From Eledone cirrhosa (Eukaryota), in assembly GCA_964016885.1 (NCBI GenBank), contig OZ024741.1, positions 176,080,001-176,144,000 on the forward strand: a stretch of 64,000 bases of DNA, written 5' to 3'. The notes beneath the pieces were generated by a model. The model searched no databases and was not told the origin of the DNA. It worked only from the letters and a program-made list of their open reading frames with translations. A program made the position numbers and the translations under genes. Below, in pieces: positions 3,151-62,189 of the stretch. Each line of letters opens with the position of its first letter. Position 1 is the stretch's first letter.

Positions 3151-3180
3151 ATCTGAGATTCCTGATGATTTCTAAATAAT

Positions 3181-3362
3181 TGTTTCTACTTTAGGCACAA
3201 GGCCAGCAAATTACCCAGTACATTACTGGTACTTTATTTTATCGACCTCGTAAGGATGAAAGGCAAAGTTAACCTCGGTGGGATTTGAACTCAGACTGTA
3301 AAGGGATGTAACTATGCTAGAAACCATGGCGTCCAACCCTCTACCGATACTGCCAATTCACC
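3181..3362 (-). mobile_element. tRNA-derived SINE, family A, with 16-bp target-site duplication
   Basis: A box TGGCAGTATCGG, B box GAGTTCAAATC, core gcctttcatcc..gtcgataaaataaagtacc (Meta-domain-like, from memory); TSD atgatttctaaataat at 3165-3180 and 3364-3379. Confidence 0.9.
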
Positions 3363-4564: not shown

Positions 4565-5225
4565 TTTGAAACTCCCTTTCAATTCTTATTCTTTCCTATT
4601 TCTTACTGAGTTTCAACTTGACACCTGAGGCAAAATTTGGAAATACACACATTGTGTTATAAATGGTGCTAAATCAAAATGGTGCTAAATCAAAATAAAT
4701 GGTGCTAAATCAAAATCATTCAATGTGGGTGTTAGACTCCACCAAGGTTACATGCAGTCACCTCTCCTGTTCATTATTTTCATAAACAGGCAGTGGATTG
4801 GCAGTATTGGTAGAGGGTCAAACGCCATTCTTTGTTGCAAAGAGTTATGACCCTTTATTATCTGAGTTCAAATCCCGCTGAGGTTAACTTTGCCTTTCAT
4901 CCTTACGGGGTCAATAAAATGAAGTACCAGTAATAATTGTACCAGGATAATTGCTGGCCTTGTGCCAAAAGTAGAAACAATTATTTTCATAAACAGGATT
5001 GCCATGCACAGCCAGTTTAGAAGTGGCATTATAACAAATGGGTGTTGGATCAGGAATGAGTGGGCAAAGAAGGGAGACACATTTAACAAACAATTGTCTT
5101 ACATCAGTAAATGTGTTTCGAAGGTATTTAAATTGATAATGCCCTTCTCAGGACATGGACTGTGCCAGTTAGCACTATTTCCTGTATCTTTTGCAAAGAT
5201 GGCTTTCCAGGTATCTGGTTTAAAT
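4565..5225 (-). mobile_element. R4/Dong LINE 3' end, interrupted by a SINE
   Basis: Reverse complement matches 48090-48340 (ccagatacctggaaagccatc...ggcattatcaattta; aaattttgcctcaggtg). Confidence 0.75.
4789..4982 (+). mobile_element. SINE family A with TSD
   Basis: Full head, core and tail; attattttcataaaca duplicated on both sides. Confidence 0.9.
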
Positions 5226-7020: not shown

Positions 7021-8705
7021 TATATACATACAACCTGTACATACATTATTTGCATTAGCACTAACTACTAAACTACAACACCGGTTTTAGAGAGTGAGGA
7101 AGGCATCCTAAAACTAGAGAAATAGCCCAAATGCTTGCAAAACTGTGAAGTCTGTTAAAAGTATTCAATATCCAGATGGTAGTGGTAAACTTGGTTAGGG
7201 ATTAAGCCTACCACCCAACAAGGCTACAGCATGAATAGAACTCAAAATACAAATAGTCAGAACAAATAATGCTAGGCAACTTAGCCAATGCTCCATCCTG
7301 AAAATAATAAAGGAGAAGTCTTTGAGGGATTTGTATTCAGAGTGTAATGAGGTAAAATAAATATTACAAAGAATTTTATCCTATGCTCCAACAAATTTTC
7401 TGATTTCCCATATGAGATGGTTTGACTCTTTTGATACTAATATGCTTCAAACTGCATTTAGTTTAATGATACAAACTAGCTCATATTAAAATGTTCATAT
7501 CTAAATCAAAATCTTCCATCATATATTCTAACTTAGAAACTTATGTAAAGTTATGTACCAAACACTATCTTAATAATATCAAAGTTAATTATTATATTAA
7601 ATCCATTGAAATTCTTGATTATTTCCAAAATTAATTGAAACCTAAGGACTGTATTTCATGTGAAATATAGTAATAAAAGGAGTAAAAGAGATGATTAAAA
7701 ACCACTATTGTTTGGAGAATGTGATTATATCTTATATATCAAGTAAAAATGATGTAATTTATACAATCTCAGATTTCTACCACAAATTGTTCAGATCATT
7801 CCACCCAGTCAGTGAATGTTATAATTAAAGGAAAATACATTTGTCCAATTCAGACAGATGATATTTCTAGCTACATATCCTAATTGAATTATTTTGAGAA
7901 CTTTATTAACTTAAAGTTTAATTGGGTTTGAATTTGTAAATTGTTCGCAAATTGAGCTAAATGAATATTTGCAGACAGTATTTAATATGTCTGGCTTTGA
8001 ACTTTGAATTAAATAAAATACTTCTAAGTTAGAAAATATTGAGTTGATTCTGAAATGGATTTTTCATCTTATTTCTATGTGTAGGGATCCCATTTCACAC
8101 AATATTTCTAATGAAAGACACTGCTTAATATTTTCAAATCATCTGGAAAGTAATAAAGATTTTGGAGGATTTAGTAATATAACTAGACTGGTGTTTGAAA
8201 CAAATGTTCTTCCATAAATTATTATAGAAGCCTCTTAGATATATTTGAGCACTTTAATCCTTTTCTTACCATATTTCTGATGAGAGATACTGCTCATGAT
8301 TTGCAAATTACTTTGAAAATCTTCAAGAATCTGAAAGGATTTGGAGATATAACTTTCTCATTATTAAGATGATGTTTGGAGCATAATTTAACATGTTCTT
8401 ACATAAAATAATGAGGTTTTCATATGAACCCAAACACTTTGAAATAAACAGCTTTGTAATATAGAATCAGGGGCTGGCTTCTGGCAGTTTATTATCAAAA
8501 GTATAAAGGAGATAGGGTGTGATTTATGCTAGATGTCGGTGCTATATAAGTATGTGTGGAAAATAAGGAACCATTTACGTTCTTGTAATCTATCTAAGAA
8601 AGGTCTGCATGGAAAATTCCAATCCAGCAGAAGCAATCAATATACATGTTATGTATTTGAAACTCTGATGTGAAAGCTCATAAAATACTTGTCCATTATA
8701 TAAAG

Positions 8706-8910
8706 GTAGGTGTATTGGCAGTATTGGTAAAGCATTGAACAAAATGTTTTGCAGTATTTAGTTACGACCTTTTACATTCTGAGTTCAAATCACAGCTGGG
8801 TCAAATTTGCATTTCTTCCTTTTGAAGTTGATCAAATAAAATACTAGTAAAGACAAAGAGGTGATTTAATTGACCCTTGTCCCCTACATTACTGGTCTAC
8901 ATTAGAGACA
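8706..8910 (+). mobile_element. Decayed SINE family A
   Basis: tggcagtattggta...gagttcaaatc...gttgatcaaataaaatac. Confidence 0.7.
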
Positions 8911-9537
8911 TTTATATAAAACACTATCTGTTTTACCCAGCTATTATGAATAGATAACATTTTAGATTTGTTGCTGCCAAGAACCTCAGTGTCTTCAATC
9001 CATAGAGTGGTGCCCTCTTTCACCAAATCAGGTTGATGTTGTGTTTAAAATAGAATAGCTGATATAGTGGATATTACTGGCTGTTCTTCGTGGCAATACT
9101 TTTGCTGTCTTGTCCATGGGGCATAGATAGCATATGATGTTCAACTAAAGGTGGGGTGTTTGCTAAGTTTTTGTTACAACTTTTTATTGCTTTTATTTTA
9201 GGTTTGTATTTATAAAAATAAAATAAAATATATCATTGTAAGTAATTTAAAGCTTAATAAACTGTACTATTTGAAGATTTTGCATCCCAACCATAGACAT
9301 AAGCCACATAAGAGCTTTGATGTAAAACTGTTCACTTTTCTTGATTTGTTGATATAACACCTTGTCAACCTGGTCAAGTGTGGCATACTTATAAACATTA
9401 TTCAGTTTAAGCTGTTTAGGAGACAAACTTTTTGAGATATTTATTAGTAGTGGTCTCTAATTTTTTGATTGAAGTACAAATAAAAAATAACATTGCTGGT
9501 GCCCTTAAAATAGAAAGTAGTTATATAATTGTTATTA

Positions 9538-13889: not shown

Positions 13890-13893
<4 letters not shown>

Positions 13894-14120
13894 ATAATAA
13901 TAAATTTGAAGACTCAAATCCAAAGAGGGCTCGATAAGGATAAATATATATCAAATATATAAGAACCGTAGAGCAAATATTTATTAAAATAACAGATTAA
14001 AGTTTAAGCAAAGAATCGCTGCTTTCACCTTTAACGGGATCTTCTGAAACTCAGAAGATCCCGTTAAGGGTTAAAGCAGCGATTCTTTGCTTAAACTTTA
14101 ATCTGTTATTTTAATAAATA
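13890..14120. mobile_element. Fold-back HHR element, CAGAAGA family (HHR 14001-14051 on -)
   Basis: About 70-bp inverted arms; rc agttt-CAGAAGA-tccc(gttaa)aggt-GAAA-gca..tg-CTT-aaact; copies at 17141, 33549, 61966. Confidence 0.8.
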
Positions 14121-14284
14121 TATATATATTTATATATATATATAAACTGTAACAAGGAATTAAAATGTTGACAGTATCCAACTGTTAAAAATGTTATCAC
14201 AATATCCCATTCAACCCATGCCAGAATGGAGAGGTGAATTTAAAATGATGATGATGATATGTATATATAAATACACTCACACAC

Positions 14285-15339: not shown

Positions 15340-15712
15340 ATATAGCCTATTTATTCTAGACCTGATAGAAATGGAGAGAATGAGATATATGTGCAATCTA
15401 AGTGGGACAGAGAGACACAGCTTGGATGATCTGAGGGAAAAGTTTGGTTTAAGAAGAATCTGTGGTGGTGTGCAGGAGGATGATCATGGATGATGATCCC
15501 TGGGTGAAGAAGAGCCAGGAAATCTCAGTGGAAGGAAACCACAGTAGAGGTAGATCAAGAAAGACCTGGCCAGAGGTGAGAAGAGCTGACCTGAAATCAC
15601 TGAAACACATGGCAGATATGATGAAGGAAAGTGGTAAATGGAAGAGTTTTGTGCTTAGAAAGACCTGTTGAATCCACACAAGCATAGAAAATCGGATGTA
15701 AAAACAGTGATA
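15340..15712 (+). mobile_element. RTE LINE 3' fragment
   Basis: RYMCNL..LREKFGLRRI, WVKKSQEISVEG..RGRSRKTW. Confidence 0.8.
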
Positions 15713-15714
15713 AT

Positions 15715-15898
15715 AATTGTTTCTACTTTTGGCAGAAGGCCAGCAATTACCCCAGTGCATTACTAGTGCTTTATTTTATCGACCCCGTAAGGGTGAAAGG
15801 CAAAGCTAACCTCGGCAGGATTTGAACTCAGAATGTAAAGGGCCATAAATCTATGCTAAAAAGCATGGTGTCTGACACTCTACCGACACTACCAATCC
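15715..15898 (-). mobile_element. SINE family A
   Basis: Full consensus in rc; tgataataat on both flanks. Confidence 0.9.
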
Positions 15899-16540
15899 TA
15901 TGATGATAATAATGATCCATAAAAATACACAATACATGAAAGAAATAGGTGGATCACACCACTAGATCATTGGTCATAGGTTGTATTCATTTCGACAACA
16001 TTGGCTTGAAAAACAACAGTTTCTTCATGTGCTATCACGTCAAAGAAAAACACCTGATGTTCTCTTAAGAAGTTCTATGGGCTTATAGGCTCTTCCACAT
16101 ATGCCATAATCTAATGAAGGATAAAAGTTATAGAACATAAAAGAATATGTATGTATATTATTATCATTATCATATGTCTGATTTTCATGCTTCTATTTGT
16201 AGGGTGGGTTGTCATCATTCAAGAACAGATGGGTGTGAGAGAACTTATCTTGGTCTTAAATTCCATATTTGGCTGGGTTTCTATGCCAACAATCTTATAA
16301 AGCCTACTGGATTTATTTAATATTTACTTACAGTAGTACCACTATAAAGAGGGTACTGGTTGTATTTTATCATGGCACTAGCACTACAACTGTTGCTATA
16401 TGCTCAGCCAGTGTGCAAAGTCCTCTCAAACACTATATAATCTCCATTTGATTGCTAACCTCTTCACAAAATGTATTGCGCGTGTGTGTGTGTGTTTATA
16501 TATATGTATACATACATACACACACACACATATATATATA

Positions 16541-17080: not shown

Positions 17081-17140
<60 letters not shown>

Positions 17141-17145
<5 letters not shown>

Positions 17146-17323
17146 TAAAATAACAGATTAAAGTTTAAGCAAAGAATCGCTGCTTTCACCCATAACGGGA
17201 TCTTCTGAAACTTTAATCTGTTATTTTAATACATATTTGCTCTACGGTTCTTATATATTTTATATATATTTATCCTTATCGAGCCCTCTTTGGATTTTAG
17301 TCTTCAAATTTATTATTATTACT
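17141..17323. mobile_element. Fold-back HHR element, CAGAAGA family (HHR 17162-17212 on -)
   Basis: Same family as 13890-14120; arms joined at the aaact stem I sequence. Confidence 0.8.
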
Positions 17324-17950: not shown

Positions 17951-18443
17951 TAAAGGACTTGAACATCTGAAACTACTTCGCTTTTCCTTATTCTATATAT
18001 ATATATATACTTTACAACACATTTTGTTTGTTATGAAATATAGATTTGAACTCAGACAAATAATCCTGCTTTATTTAATTATGTTCGCTTGTTATTTTTG
18101 TGGAAGCTAACTTTAAAACTTGACAGTGTAATCAATTGATAATACTGCAGTAACTGTCTCTAAGATGTGTAGATTATATTAGTGAATAGGATACAGTAGT
18201 GTTGGTAGGGGTGGGGAGCTCTGAAGGTGGAGTTGATATTTTTCACATGTGGACTTATTGCCAACCAAAGCTAACATTCCATATGAAGCCATCCCTGTCT
18301 TTCTTCTCATGTATTGCTATTTGTATTTACCTTTCTATACACCCATCTAATTATGTATGGAATACTTTGAGAGTGTCAAGCTGCTAATAAAATCACAAGC
18401 AGCAGATGTATTTCATTTCAGTGTTATTATTAGTTAGGTAAAA

Positions 18444-19290
18444 AGGGCGGTAGACTGGTAGTATTGGTAGAGGGTCGTACGCCATGCTTTGATGCATAGA
18501 GTTACGCCCCTTGCCATTCTGAGTTCAAATCCCGCCGAGGTTAACTTTGCCTTTCATCCTTACGGGGTTGATAAAATAAAGTACCAGTAATGCACTGGGT
18601 AATTGCTGGCCTTGTGCCAAAAGTAGAAACAATTATTAGTTAGGTAAAAAGGGCGGTGGATTGGTAGTATCGGTAGAGAGTCGGACACCGTGCTTTGCAG
18701 CATAGAGTTACAGCCTTTACGATCTGAGTTTAAATCCCGCTGAGGTTAACTTTGCCTTTCATCCTTACGCGGTTGATAAAATAAAGTACCAGTCATGAAC
18801 TGGGATCGATTTAATCAACTTTCCACTCCCCCAAAATTGCTCCCCTGGTGCCTATAGTAGAAAACATTATTAGTTAGGTGAAAGGGTGGTAGTGTGGCAG
18901 AATCGGTAGAGCGTTGGACAATATGCTTTCCAACATAGAGTTATGTCCCTTTATGTTCTGAATTCAAAGGGTAACTTTATATTTCACCCTTTTGGGGTTC
19001 ATAAAATAATGAACCACTAATGCACTGGGGTCAATTTAATTGCCTTTCCCTTCTCCCCAAATTGCTGCCTGAATAAAAAAAAAATTATTAGGTAGGTAAA
19101 CGTTTGTGGAATGGCTGAGATGTTAGAACAATGGACACAAAGTTTTTTATTCCACCCCTTTATGTTCAAATCCCATCAATGTCAACTTTACCTCTCATTT
19201 TTCTTTGGTCAATAAAATAAAGTTGATATAACCGACTTTCCACTTTCCACAAATTGCTGGCCATTTTTTCTAAATTTGAAATCATTATTA
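18444..19290 (+). mobile_element. Head-to-tail array of four SINE family A copies
   Basis: Heads near 18444, 18651, 18884, 19100, separated by tattagttaggt(a/g)aa-like spacers. Confidence 0.85.
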
Positions 19291-28974: not shown

Positions 28975-29345
28975 ACGTGTATTCCGGGTTCAATCAGGGG
29001 TAGCCAAAGTAAGTAAAGTACTCAATACAAAGTAGATTATATAATTGTTTCTATTATAGGCACAAGGCCAGCAATTACCCAGTGCATTACTGGTACTTTA
29101 TTTTATCGACCCCGTAAGCACGAAAGGCAAAGTTAACCTCGGCGGGATTTGAACTCAGATCGTAAAGGGACGTAACTATGCTGGAAAGCATGGCGTCCGA
29201 CCCTCTATCGATACTGCCAATATAATGTTTAAAAATGATGTACTCTACTATGTATTGAGTACCTTACTTACTTTGGCTAGCCCTGCTTGAACCCGGGATA
29301 CACATATCTTTTAGCACCTAACCGTGCCCTCAACTATCAGATTAA
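28975..29345. mobile_element. Fold-back of element tail (family of 3098 and 41130) with SINE A (29043-29221, -) in the middle
   Basis: Inverted arms carrying gtattgagtac.ttacttactttggcta..ttgaacccgg. Confidence 0.7.
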
Positions 29346-33548: not shown

Positions 33549-33812
33549 AGTAATAATAATAAATTTGAAGACTATAATCCAAAGAATAAATATATAGCAA
33601 ATATATCCAAAGGATAAATATATATCAAATATATAAGAACTGTAGAGCAAATATTTATTAAAATAACTGATTAAAGTTTAAGCAAAGAATCGCTGCTTTC
33701 ACCCTTAACGGGATCTTCTGAAACTAACAAAGTCAATCTGTGAACCCGTTAAGGGTGAAAGCAGCGATACTTTGCTTAAACTTTAAACTTTAATCTGTTA
33801 TTTTAATAAATA
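33549..33812. mobile_element. Fold-back HHR element, CAGAAGA family (extended HHR 33667-33740 on -)
   Basis: rc cagattga-ctttgtt-agttt-CAGAAGA-tccc(gttaa)gggt-GAAA-gca..tg-CTT-aaact-ttaatcag. Confidence 0.8.
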
Positions 33813-33904
33813 TATATATATATATATTTGACGTTATAGTCACTTATATATTATGAAATACTGGTGGCTTCATGCTCACAATAATTTCTATACTTTCATT
33901 TATA

Positions 33905-37849: not shown

Positions 37850-38630
37850 TGGACAACATGCTTTTTGGCATTGAGTTACGGTCCTTTACATTCTGAGTTC
37901 CAATCACGCTGAGGTTAGCTTTGCCTTTCATCCATACAGCCTCAATAAAATAAAGTACGCACTGGGGTTGATATAATCCACTTTCCCCTCCCATTTAAAT
38001 TGCTGGACTTGTTCTTAAAGTAGAAACAATTATTATTATTATTATAGGGCAGTGAATTGGCAGTATCGGTAGAGGGTCAGGCACCATGCTATCCAGCATA
38101 GAGTTACGTCCCTTTACAGTTTGAGTTCAAATCACGCCGAGGTTAACTTTGCCTTTCATCCTTACGGGGTCGATAAATTAAAGTACCAGTAATGCACTGG
38201 AATAATTGCTGGCCTTGTGCCAAAATTAGAAACAATTATAGGGCAGTGGATTAGCAGTATGGGTAGAGTGTTGGACAATATGCTTTATGATCTAGAGTTA
38301 CGTCCCTTTGCATTCTGAGGTCAAATCCTGCCAAGATTTGCTTTGTCTGTCATCTTTAAGGGATCAATAGAATAAAACACCAGTCACACTAAGGTTGATT
38401 TAATTGACTTCCCCTTTAGAGCAGTGGCTTGGCAGAATTGTTTGGCCATTGGATAAAATGGTTTACATATTTGTTTCATCTCTTTATGTTCTGTGTTCAA
38501 GCTTGACAGGGTCAACTTTACCTCCCAGCTTTCTGGGGTTCAATAAAATAAAATATCAGTTAAGAACTAGGGTTGATATAATTAACATACCCATTTTACC
38601 CAAAATTGCTGGCTTGTGCCAAAATTAAAA
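37850..38630 (+). mobile_element. Head-to-tail array of four SINE family A copies
   Basis: Copies near 37850, 38047, 38241, 38420. Confidence 0.8.
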
Positions 38631-41575: not shown

Positions 41576-41880
41576 TTCAAGGTTCAATTATGCTAAGCAG
41601 TTGAAAAAGAAATTCTCTAAATATAGTTTTTAAAGAATTCCCTTTCTTTAAATCCATCAACCAATGACCTCCACCCATCCCAATCACAACCCTCTCCTAC
41701 CACCAGAAAATGTATAAATACCACCATATTACATTGACAGTCAGATTCCCAGATGATTTCTCCCAAATGAAACAGTTCTAGTCCTGTAGAAGCTATTTCT
41801 ATATTAAATATTTATACTGCGTTATGTATTGAGTACCTTACTTACTGTAGTTACCCCCCGATTGAACCCGGTATAAACAT
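41130..41880. mobile_element. Fold-back Penelope-like element (family of 3098) with decayed HHRs
   Basis: About 165-bp inverted arms (41135-41300 / 41615-41780); CAGATGA..GAAAcag..ctGTA at about 41745-41792; gtattgagtaccttacttact tail. Confidence 0.75.
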
Positions 41881-54110: not shown

Positions 54111-54404
54111 TCATCACTGTAATGTAAATATACAGAACTGCTGACCACTCAGCAATGAGCTAAAGATTTGCTAGTGCATCTATCAATTGTGTTGAAGCTT
54201 TAAGCAAAGAATATAATTTATATTCTTATATTTAGGAACTTATCCTGATGGAAAAGAAAAACACAACAATATAATTATGAAATAATGAGCTGAAAATAGA
54301 ACCATTCTTAAATTGTTCAATCTGCTTGAAAGGGGGACATAAAAGTTAGTGCTACTGTAGCATGTAGTTTACTACAGCATATATAGTCTAATGATTGGAT
54401 TAGG

Positions 54405-57300
54405 GTTCATTTTGTAGTTGTGGTAGACTGCATGCTGAAATGTAAAGGATAAGGTAAACAACATGGTGAACTGTAAACAACTGACTAGACCACACACTGA
54501 ACTTCAAATAAAGACATAGATGCATGCTGAACAGCAAATGACCATTTAGACTGCATGCTGAACTGTAGATGACCAGGTAGACAGATCAGTGAACTGAAAA
54601 TTGTCAGGTTAACCATATGCTGAAGTTCAAATTACGAGGGGGACAAGACATTGGACTGTAAATGACCAGATTGACAGCATGGGGACCTGTAAGTGTAGAG
54701 TGAAACCACACAGAACTGTAATTCACCAGGTAGCCTGCATGCTGAACTGTAAATGACCAAGTAGACCAGATACTGAACTGTTAATTTACCAGGTAGAATG
54801 CACACTCAACTGTAAATATTTAAATAGACTGCTCTCTCAACTGTTAAAGACCAGATGGACCACACGTATTGTAAACCATGATAAAGATTACACGCTGGAT
54901 TATAAATGACCAGATAGTACATAAACTGTATTGTAAATATACAGGAAGATCATACACTGGACTTATATGACCAGTTAGACAACATGTTGAATTGTAAATG
55001 GCCAAGTAGACCACAAATTGAGCTGTAAAGAACCAGGTAAACTGCATCCTGAATTACCAATGATCCGCTTGACCTCATGTTGAACTGTAAATGAGGAAGT
55101 AGACCACTTGCTGCACTGAAAGGAGGAAGAAAATCACATGTTGAACTATAAATCAACAAGAACTGTCAATGTTCAGGTAGAGCACACTCCGAAATGTAAT
55201 TAACCAAGTAATCCACTCACTGAATAGAATATTGACTGGAATACCTCACACTGAACTGAAAATCAAGTGCACCACATGCTCCATTGCAAAGCCACCAGGC
55301 AGACAGCATGTTGAAGTATAAATGACCACTTAAACTGCATGCTGAACTGTAAATGCCAAGATAGACCACACTGAAGTGTAAATGCCCAGATAGACCATAT
55401 TGTAAATCGTAAATGACCAAGTACTCCGCACACGAAATGGTAAAAGAAAAATAAACAGGTAGACAGCACACTGAACTGTAAATGATCAAGTAGACTGCAC
55501 ACTGAACTGTAAATATAGAGGGGGAGGGGGATCACACACTAAACTGTACATGACCAGATAGATCATGCTGAATGATGAGTGACCAGGTCAATCACAGGCT
55601 AAGCAGTACATCAACAGATAGACCACATAGTGAACTGTAAATAACCAAGTAGACAATATGCTAAACTGTAAATGACCAGGTGCCACCACCCCTCGAAAAC
55701 TGAGCTGTAAATGATCAAGTAGACTCCATGGCCCAATCGAGTGCATGCTGAATGATAAATTACCAGATGGATCACACAGTGAGCTATCAATGAGCAGATA
55801 AACCACATACTGGACTGTAAATTACCAAAGACACCACATACTGAGCTGTATATGATGAAGTAAACTGTAGCTTGAATGATAAATAACCAGGTAGACCACA
55901 CTGAACTGAAAATAGACAGGTAGCCCATATGCTGAACTGTACGTGTGCAGGTAGACCATCCACAGAACTGTAAATGATCAGGTACATCCCATGCTGAACT
56001 GTAAATTGCACAGAGAACTGAGAAATTCCAGGTAACAATGGACTGTAATTGATTAGGCAGACCACATACTGAGTTGTAAATTACCAGGTAGATAATACAC
56101 TGAACTGTAAATGACTAGTTGGACTGCACACTGAACTGTAAATGACTAGGTAGACCACACACTGAACTCTAAATGACTAGTTAGACCACACACTGAACTG
56201 TAAATGACTATGTAAACTGCATGCTGAACTGTATGACAAGGCAATAAAAGAAACAGTGAACTGTAAATCATGACATAGACCACACACTGAACTGTAAGTG
56301 ACTAAGGAGAACAATTGATGAATTGCAAAGGACAAGGTTGACAACATGCTGAACTGTAACTGATGAAATAAATTGCATGTTAATTTGAAAATGACCAGAT
56401 AGTCGGCATGCTGAACTATAAATGACTAAGTAGATTACACATAATACTATAAGTGACCAGGTAGACCACATGTTCAAATGTAAACATGTAGGCAAATCAC
56501 ATGTTGAACTATATATACGACCAGGTAGACCATACACTAAACTGTAAATGACGCGTTAGACCATATGCTGAACTGCAAATATGCAGCTACCTAACACAAT
56601 GAACTGCAAATTACCAGATACACCACATGCTGCAATGCAAATGACCTAGAAGACTTCTCATTGAAATATAAATAAATAGGTAGACTGAACACTGAACTGT
56701 AAATGATGAGGTAAGCCACACACTGAGCTGTAAATAACAAGTGTAATGCTTTCTGAAGTGTAAATGATTAGATAGAACACATACTAACCATATACTGAAC
56801 TGTGTATAAACAAGTACACAACACACTGGACATGTTGCCTACATAGTGAACTGTAAATTAACCATCATTGCAAACTAGAATATAAACAGAGAGGTAGACC
56901 ACAAGCAAACTATTTACTGAACTGAACTGACAATGATAAGATAGACCACATGCTGAACTGTATATGATGAGGTAAACCACAGCTTCAACAATAATTATAC
57001 ATAGGGTCCACACCCTGAAATCTATTTGATCTACCTGGTCATTTACAGTTCAGCATGCAGTGTAAATGGTCATTTGCTATTCAGTGTGTGATCTACTTTA
57101 TCATTTACAATTCAGTATGTAGATTACCTGATCATTTACAGCACAGCATGTGGTATGCATGCTATAATGTAAATGGCCAGGTAGACCACATGTTTAACTG
57201 TAAATGACAAGGTAGACAATACATTGAACTGTAAATTGCCCGAGAGACTATCAACTCAACTGTAAATGACCAATCAGACCACACGGTGAACTGTAAATGC
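54405..57300. repeat. Degenerate satellite, unit about 31 bp (aaatgaccaggtagaccacacactgaactgt)
   Basis: Tens of diverged copies; best preserved at 56100-56230; inverted block about 57025-57160. Confidence 0.9.
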
Positions 57301-58419: not shown

Positions 58420-58814
58420 AAGAATGAGAAATTAGATTGAAGGGTCGGTGGGGTGGAATGGGAAAATATGTCTTTAGATAAAAATAACAGCTTCATTCAT
58501 GTTGCCATCTCTTAAGGTAAACATAAATAACAACACAATCGGTACAGTATATGAAAGAATATATTAGGTTAACGCTTGAAATAGCAGGAAGAGGGTCTTA
58601 ACGTTTTGGACGCTAGTCTTTAATCAAAAGAAAGAATGAGAAATTATAAGGATTGATGGGATGGGCAGGACGATATACATATAGTTTAATTGTTTGTAAC
58701 TTCACGTTACAATTGGTTGACCAACTTGAGCACTCGATGCATAGTTGGGTCCGTTTTAGTATAGAATGTGGTGTTGTACATTTGGTCTTATACTATGGTC
58801 GGTTAATGATAATA

Positions 58815-59177
58815 ATTGTTTCTACTTTTGGCACAAGGCCCGCAATTATCCCAGTGCATTACTGGTACTTTATTTTATCGACCCCGTAAGGATGAAAGGC
58901 AAAGTCAACCTCGACGGGATTTGAACTCAGACCGTAAAAGGACGTAATTATGCTAGAAAGCATGGCGTCCGACCCTCTACCGATACTGCCAATCAACCGT
59001 TAATGCTAATATGTGTTTCTACGTTAGGCACAAGGCCAGCAATTACCCAGTGTATTACTGGTACTTTATTTTATCGACCCCGTATAAAGTTAACCTCGGC
59101 GGGATTTGAACTCAGAATGGCAAGGGCCTACCTCTATGCGTCAAAGCAAGGCGTCCGACCCTCTCCCAATACTGTCA
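58815..59177 (-). mobile_element. Two tandem SINE family A copies
   Basis: 58815-58995 and 59014-59177. Confidence 0.9.
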
Positions 59178-61933: not shown

Positions 61934-61965
61934 TGTATATATATATGTACATATATATATGTATA

Positions 61966-62189
61966 TATTTATTAAAATAACAGATTAAAGTTTAAGCAAA
62001 GAATCGCTGCTTTCACCCTTAACGTGATCTTTCAGAAGATCCCGTTAAGGGTGAAAGCAGCGATTCTTTGCTTAAACTTTAATCTGTTATTTTAATAAAT
62101 ATTTGCTCTACGGTTCTTATATATTTGATATATATTTATCCTTATCGATCCCTCTTTGGATTTTAGTCTTCAAATTTATTATTATTACT
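61966..62189. mobile_element. Fold-back HHR element, CAGAAGA family (HHR core 62030-62078 on +)
   Basis: ttt-CAGAAGA-tccc(gttaa)gggt-GAAA-gca..tg-CTT-aaact; same tail as 17141-17323. Confidence 0.8.

Follow-up and report, generated by a model that had tools for sequence, protein, structure and literature searches.

We identified a hammerhead-type motif with adenine in place of uridine at core position 4 (A4) in the pseudo-LTR of a young Penelope-like element (PLE) of Eledone cirrhosa. The motif came to light in a stretch of 64,000 nucleotides, referred to below as the window. In its way of working it resembles the known hammerheads of PLE pseudo-LTRs; it differs from them in that the canonical core fails at U4, throughout the family.

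Five CAGAAGA cores are present in the window, at four loci (C3 at 14046(−), 14052(+), 17207(−), 33720(−) and 62033(+)). An earlier note on this DNA had described four loci with this core, a U/U at the base of stem II and a CUU site, and all five cores agree: each has U10.1/U11.1 and the CUU triplet. Behind each core come a short stem II with U·U as its closing pair, GAAA, a 5-bp stem III and CUU. The copies, said to be nearly identical, are 97–99% identical over their shared part. Only the minus-strand arm at 33.7 kb contains the complete motif. The other cores are cut relative to C3 at −5 (14046(−) and 17207(−)), −1 (14052(+)) and −3 (62033(+)).

The arm at 33.7 kb (33550..33745, minus strand) is the 3′ end of the PLE, a long-tail arm that is 5′-truncated at −25 from C3 and ends in (TA)n. 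Its type I hammerhead-type motif spans 33740–33667 and includes the extended stem I with a 7-nt bulge exactly as claimed earlier. The outer stem I comprises 8 bp (33740–33733 with 33674–33667), the bulge lies at 33732–33726, and the inner stem I comprises 5 bp (33725–33721 with 33679–33675). The core C3-A4-G5-A6-A7-G8-A9 occupies 33714..33720 with A4 at 33719. Stem II (33701..33713) consists of U10.1·U11.1, 3 bp and a 5-nt loop. The remaining part (33679..33700) comprises G12-A13-A14-A15.1, stem III (5 bp including A15.1-U16.1, 7-nt loop) and the CUU triplet. From hammerhead numbering, the predicted scissile bond lies between 33680 and 33679. A T>A change at 33668 leads to the loss of one outer stem I pair.

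Every window locus is built up from two 5′-truncated arms in a head-to-head arrangement within (TA)n. At 33.7 kb, the inverted partner arm (33745..33813, plus strand) is a short end that starts at +8 and lacks the 5′ core; in every transcript it base-pairs with the minus arm. At 14.0 kb, a long-tail arm cut at −5 (13890..14051, minus strand; core 14046) has one stem II change; the short inverted arm (14051..14121, plus strand; core 14052) begins at −1, carries G12U at 14072 and is without the 5′ strand of stem I. The locus with core 17207 consists of a short arm cut at −5 (17138..17212, minus strand) and a long-tail arm from +41 (17208..17323, plus strand), joined via a 5-nt stem I microhomology. 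Here the partner arm gives a perfect, bulge-less stem I by inversion. At 62.0 kb, a long-tail arm cut at −3 (62030..62189, plus strand; core 62033) is combined with a short inverted arm that starts at +3, within the core (61965..62031, minus strand). At 14.0, 33.7 and 62.0 kb, a long hairpin formed with the partner arm (about −91 to −107 kcal/mol) is predicted to sequester the motif. We regard the four window copies as by-products that are likely inert. The earlier note treated them as a hammerhead family as such; they are instead fragments of an autonomous Penelope-like element and do not stand alone.

Three helices with an open stem I can form around the core, and in a typical copy (L012) all pairs are Watson-Crick or G-U. 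The motif departs from the canonical core C3-U4-G5-A6-N7-G8-A9 at position 4 only. G12-A13-A14, A15.1-U16.1 and H17 are all present, whereas the canonical G10.1-C11.1 is replaced by U·U. The assignment as a hammerhead-type motif is supported. A 5-bp stem III together with a bulged stem I makes its anatomy monomer-competent. The hammerhead fold has a predicted energy of −12.4 kcal/mol, compared with a predicted minimum of −15.6 kcal/mol, in a model that ignores core contacts. Calculated pair probabilities are 0.72–0.95 for the outer stem I, 0.82–0.85 for stem II, 0.27–0.35 for stem III and 0.05–0.07 for the inner stem I; folding z-scores of the motif are 0.74 and −0.77. Within the family no covariation was seen, the motif being without lineage variants.

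The Rfam hammerhead model gave no match at the four loci at E-values up to 5. Its sole match in the window was a canonical motif at 139–210, below the gathering score, and the canonical-U4 motifs at 2513(+), 26423(+) and 30285(+) were without a match as well. The expectation that standard searches would miss the variant is thus correct for the four loci, but the miss is not attributable to A4 alone, because canonical-U4 motifs of the same window were missed too. Canonical-U4 motifs of other repeat families are located at 157(+), 2355(−)/2513(+), 3145(−), 26423(+), 30285(+) and 34382(−), and a lone CAGATGA copy of a family otherwise U4 at 41750(+). The window also contains a degenerate tandem array of ~3 kb with a 31-bp unit (54400–57300) and a SINE-like dispersed repeat of ~180 nt in both orientations (3175–3362, 4767–4942, 15712–15899, 18424–18599, 29039–29226, 38026–38395, 58811–58998 and others).

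An upstream walk from longer copies led to reverse transcriptase (RT) and GIY-YIG fragments and then to a near-complete element (L048) with a repeat unit of 3,004 nt. It comprises a pseudo-LTR (a truncated upstream copy), an ORF from the ATG at 1869 and a second pseudo-LTR, with hammerhead cores at 1690 and 4694. The single ORF encodes a protein of ~700 aa, in which the RT is followed by a C-terminal GIY-YIG domain. We located the motifs RW(G) at 37, DKT at 115, YRDD at 346, the CxCx5C linker CNCRNRVDC at 564, NIVY at 582, AYIG at 597, CDLC (CxxC) at 662 and CKH (CxH) at 690; a CCHH motif is absent from the protein as judged by eye. Of 8,000 proteins scored in a search with this protein, 551 had E-values of at most 1e-30, and the best match showed 56% identity. 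Pfam and PDB searches gave no match, nor did a metagenome scan with a single protein, and no sister family above ~39% protein identity was present among the fetched loci. The element also occurs as partial tandems that form pseudo-LTRs and as 5′-truncated and inverted copies, targets (TA)n and is ~3 kb long. The parent is a Penelope-like element with protein motifs that match the Hydra clade as described in PMC8557442, the clade being assigned from these motifs. A canonical hammerhead is expected in the pseudo-LTR of this clade; a hammerhead-type motif is found there, but with A4. The L048 locus also contains an open 730-aa ORF of another Hydra-like family (7251–9440(−), 38% identity), adjoined by an inverted partial copy. 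Elsewhere in the genome (G000:C2:61196558–61197529), the tail of the element occurs in seven head-to-tail copies with ~150-nt spacing.

The pseudo-LTR contains a spliceosomal GT-AG intron (L048 828–1587). The motif is located in the second exon, ~100 nt after the intron and ~180 nt before the ORF start. Most long copies keep the intron, and it is precisely missing from 262 genomic copies, so the element has passed through RNA; joints across the intron also occur in the sequence runs compared, which are contigs of unrecorded kind. At the 3′ side, copies end at one of two fixed positions, +69 or +156 from C3, both downstream of the predicted cut after +40, and all long copies extend through the predicted cut site. 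Non-LTR retrozymes (Cervera and de la Pena 2020, PMC7229834; bioRxiv 10.64898/2026.07.22.740005) resemble the family as short animal repeats that are linked to PLEs and carry a type I hammerhead. In general, however, a non-LTR retrozyme is a non-coding head-to-tail unit with one hammerhead each and, as far as the covered text of these reports goes, occurs as tandem fragments, whereas the present family has an ORF-bearing parent and inverted, truncated arms.

In the genome of 3.0 Gb, a pattern with positions 4 and 7 left free resulted in 19,325 exact matches, compared with 0 for a reversed-pattern control; the motif is therefore not due to chance. When the 5′ strand of stem I was required, A4 was present in 10,307 of 10,371 copies (99.4%), which confirms that the variant was amplified as such. 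The 64 others (28 T, 18 G and 18 C, counted by eye) are at the level of post-insertion change, and 10,307 A against 28 U rules out a family that mostly reads CTGAAGA. Without the stem I requirement CTGAAGA gave 547 genome matches, and 27 of the first 30 examined were inversion-junction chimeras without stem I. They take their CTG from the antisense arm at the junction (e.g. loci L049–L077). Inversion junctions that rebuild the canonical CTGAAGA are hence a pitfall in counting U4 copies. We also inspected copies chosen by their upstream splice junction, regardless of the motif (70 fetched from the first 100 of the 262 listed, 69 distinct). The motif is reached by 67 of them, 66 with A4 and one with a gap. 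Rare substitutions amount to 1.4–2.2% per site, so the family is young, as had been proposed. A sequence run under a second organism label also covers the motif, and among 40 of its 171 rows no difference at position 4 occurs, too weak a result to carry weight. As to a U4 subfamily as founder, none was found; matches with U4 and a free stem II (n = 140) look like scattered single changes among the first 100 listed. A4 is the founder state of the family.

To compare the motif with related elements, we scanned 77 metagenome loci (best 80 of 247), leaving position 4 free. Sense-strand motifs were found in 37 of the 77 loci, 40 of them distinct; shuffled controls gave 2, 0 and 0 matches. The 40 loci without a match may lack a pseudo-LTR or have other variants. 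Position 4 is U in 39 of the 40 motifs, C in one and A in none, so A4 is derived. Stem II is closed by U·U in 17 of the 40 motifs and U17 occurs in five; the triplets are GUA (30), GUC (5) and GUU (5). The published Hydra-clade table (Craig et al. 2021, PMC8557442) contains 25 families, all with U4, which its search descriptor required; counted by eye, 14 of the 25 have U·U at stem II and 10 have U17. Natural U10.1·U11.1 has been reported in hammerheads elsewhere as well (PMC3088659). U·U and U17 are thus no oddities of the present family, contrary to what the first description of the motif implied. The Hydra-clade elements share with it the type I topology in the pseudo-LTR, U·U, U17, (TA)n targets, a short element and protein motifs (PMC8557442). 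In contrast to their search-imposed U4 and their listed GUH triplets, the present family has a fixed A4, CUU with G15.2-C16.2 and a 5-bp stem III with a non-palindromic 7-nt loop. The scan of 600 kb of unselected genome sequence yielded 42 motifs, of which 34 have U4 and 8 have A4 (2 per shuffle), corresponding to about one motif per 14 kb. All eight A4 motifs belong to this Penelope-like family, and the CUU triplet also occurs in one U4 family. The genuine oddity is therefore A4; CUU is infrequent, and U·U is nothing unusual. At L012:2530(+) we observed a hammerhead-like motif with C4 (CCGAAGA), a palindromic stem III and a GUA triplet. No earlier report of a natural U4A hammerhead was found in the literature searched, which covered text rather than figures and most supplements, so that a report or a rate may exist there. 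The natural core variants compiled by Perreault et al. (2011, PMC3088659) likewise include a position-4 change (U4C in a viroid) together with U·U. Those variants, among them U4C, U3-A8 and A6C, are rare isolates and U4A is not named in the covered text, whereas here it is fixed in more than 10,000 copies.

Based on these results we favor, at about even confidence, the view that a recently amplified Penelope-like element carries the motif as its pseudo-LTR hammerhead, with a U4A change that likely slows cleavage and a fold that is likely kept by selection. In the corresponding mechanism, the protein of the element would nick (TA)n and the RT would prime at the nick. From an internal start at +69 or +156, the RT would copy RNA that is mostly uncut and read through the ribozyme. 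It would often stop near the 5′ edge of the motif, yielding short inverted pairs like the four window loci. Slow or protein-assisted cleavage, probably dependent on the outer stem I and the bulge, would be tolerated or even useful, since fast cleavage, we propose, would detach both the cap and the RT start sites from the remaining RNA. Poseidon from Anolis carolinensis (Frangieh et al. 2024, PMC11167929) also has two internal RT starts downstream of the hammerhead cut and two 3′ ends, and it is also copied through an uncut hammerhead site. It belongs to another PLE clade, with a canonical core and a tail of 30–40 nt, whereas the tail of the present family has 87 nt; the Poseidon hammerhead has been assayed.

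The strongest alternative, which we consider a serious but somewhat less probable explanation, is a dead relic. U4A would have abolished cleavage in the founder, which could spread because the ribozyme was not needed; the conserved block would be kept by youth or by an overlapping function, e.g. a promoter start or a binding site of the element's protein. The pattern of constraint bears on this question. Lineage variants, i.e. those common to at least 4 of 69 copies, occur as linked haplotypes and mark source lineages. None of the 76 motif sites carries one, compared with 13 of 135 sites in the non-coding flank (after removal of 25 pattern-fixed sites) and 6 of 240 at the ORF end. Comparing the motif with the non-coding flank resulted in a Fisher p of 0.0048 (0.0005–0.028 at thresholds 3–6), a statistic that rests on few linked source lineages with non-independent sites. 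Against the nearest 80 nt of flank alone, the counts are 0/76 and 5/80, a difference without significance (p 0.059). The closest variable position, −22, lies one base beyond the invariant block. This block extends over the complete motif, the outer stem I and the two loops included; its extent and the intact state of all core positions other than 4 in the family speak against a relic. The absence of variants from the 76-nt motif suggests selection on its sequence; an overlapping promoter or protein-binding site could, however, yield an equal invariant block.

A second, sequence-unrelated family with A4 supplies evidence for both sides. Its unit of ~502 nt occurs in tandem and inverted in (TA)n, with 456 exact matches in the genome (loci L064:1047–1160, L099–L106 and L227–L276), and no ORF match was found in nine loci checked. 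It fits better with retrozymes than the Penelope-like family does. Its motif combines an 8-bp stem I and G10.1-C11.1 with a long stem III and a GUC triplet. When none of the seven core positions was prescribed, the first 100 of the 456 matches, counted by eye, comprised 58 CAGAAGA, 9 CCGAAGA, 9 CAGCTGA (A4 with A6C), 7 TTGAGAA (U4 with a U3-A8 swap), 3 CAGATGA and 14 singletons. The core labels cluster in a tree of 57 copies (midpoint root, unsettled bootstrap). The TTGAGAA group forms a single clade (100/100) that is placed among C4 copies, a nesting that is weakly supported. One pair of stem III occurs in A-U, G·U and G-C forms. Compensating stem changes and a U4 lineage with a swapped U3-A8 pair argue against a dead relic; they point to a core that may be maintained while position 4 is free to be A or C. 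Together with the viroid U4C, which is weak in vitro and sufficient in vivo according to the covered text (PMC3088659), this tolerance would count in favor of slow cleavage with a selected fold. The spread of the A4+C6 lineage (9/100), on the other hand, suits a core that is not needed and suggests that a weak core is no bar to amplification. The hammerhead fold, predicted to lie above the energy minimum, would also count against our preferred reading. The second family thus provides a natural core series of A4, C4, A4+C6 and U3-U4-A8. Some of its lineages have a duplicated GAAA-stem III module.

Further points, most of them in line with a dead relic, come from the literature and from the ends of the copies. 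As far as the covered text of the published mutagenesis goes, single changes in CUGA leave low activity, and a second change brings no rescue apart from the C3-G8 swap (PMC9901934). PLE hammerheads are often weak at cleavage (PMC4209133). In vitro, a PLE hammerhead was found to be protein-assisted and dispensable for insertion, which its mutants left unimpaired (PMC11167929), and Naiad PLEs are described as spreading without canonical hammerheads (PMC8557442). In the present family, 564 genome matches start at the cut site and 500 one base upstream, i.e. the truncation points show no cleavage footprint; about 12 of the first 30 cut-site starts listed are true truncations and the rest are mostly point changes. 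Efficient cleavage is disfavored by the weak published CUGA mutants, the copying through the site and the lack of a pile-up of 5′ ends. In 802 kb of unselected sequence, 19 of 36 arms start within −8 to +3 (12 short and 7 long; paired arms are not independent), with a mode at −5. These starts could mark a transcription start that overlaps the motif, as the relic explanation allows.

The A at −5 is part of a sequence that resembles the initiator consensus YYANWYY, and the hotspot at −5 may be a transcription start. It is not specific for A4: one U4 family has 7 of 11 ends within 1–7 nt, and most others are without a hotspot. A ribozyme gated by its position, with transcription starting at this A, seems rather unlikely to us. 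The 5′ copy, with only the 5-bp inner stem and with A4, would be switched off and keep the cap and the RT start sites. In the 3′ read-through copy the outer stem and the bulge would rescue A4 and allow cleavage.

A fully active core variant, in which the bulged stem I would contact loop II and offset A4, cleavage would proceed at a normal rate and religated circles would template the RT, appears quite improbable. The monomer-competent anatomy fits this explanation, as do A4 as the majority state in two sequence-unrelated families, the published circle model (PMC4209133) and the suggestion that tertiary contacts offset core variants (PMC3088659). It conflicts with the lack of A4 in the 40 motifs of related elements and with the published CUGA mutagenesis; roughly half of the arms terminate immediately 5′ of the core instead of at the cut site, which the circle model does not predict. 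Least probable is that A4 is kept as part of a CAG splice acceptor that lets splicing rebuild or remove the ribozyme: the 5′ strand does resemble a branch point, pyrimidine tract and CAG, and an intron of the D. virilis Penelope ends at helix I (PMC4209133), but for retrotransposed RNA the reading is largely refuted, as the used donor is joined to an AG within 25 nt of the core in 0 genomic copies and to the acceptor ~100 nt upstream in 262, no core joint occurs among 15 of 64 joints listed, and the donor exon lacks CTG at its end.

What hammerheads do in Penelope-like elements is still debated in the covered literature as an open question (PMC8557442, PMC11167929). More than 10,000 copies with a change at a normally invariant core base represent a natural experiment on this role. 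If the ribozyme is gated by its position, A4 would be an adaptive brake that has arisen in two or more mobile families of a single animal genome, and it would offer a direct handle on what the hammerhead does in these elements. If the A4 motif cannot cleave, cleavage would be dispensable for transposition in vivo. If it does cleave, U4A would join the natural core repertoire, and searches based on CUGANGA would undercount ribozymes.
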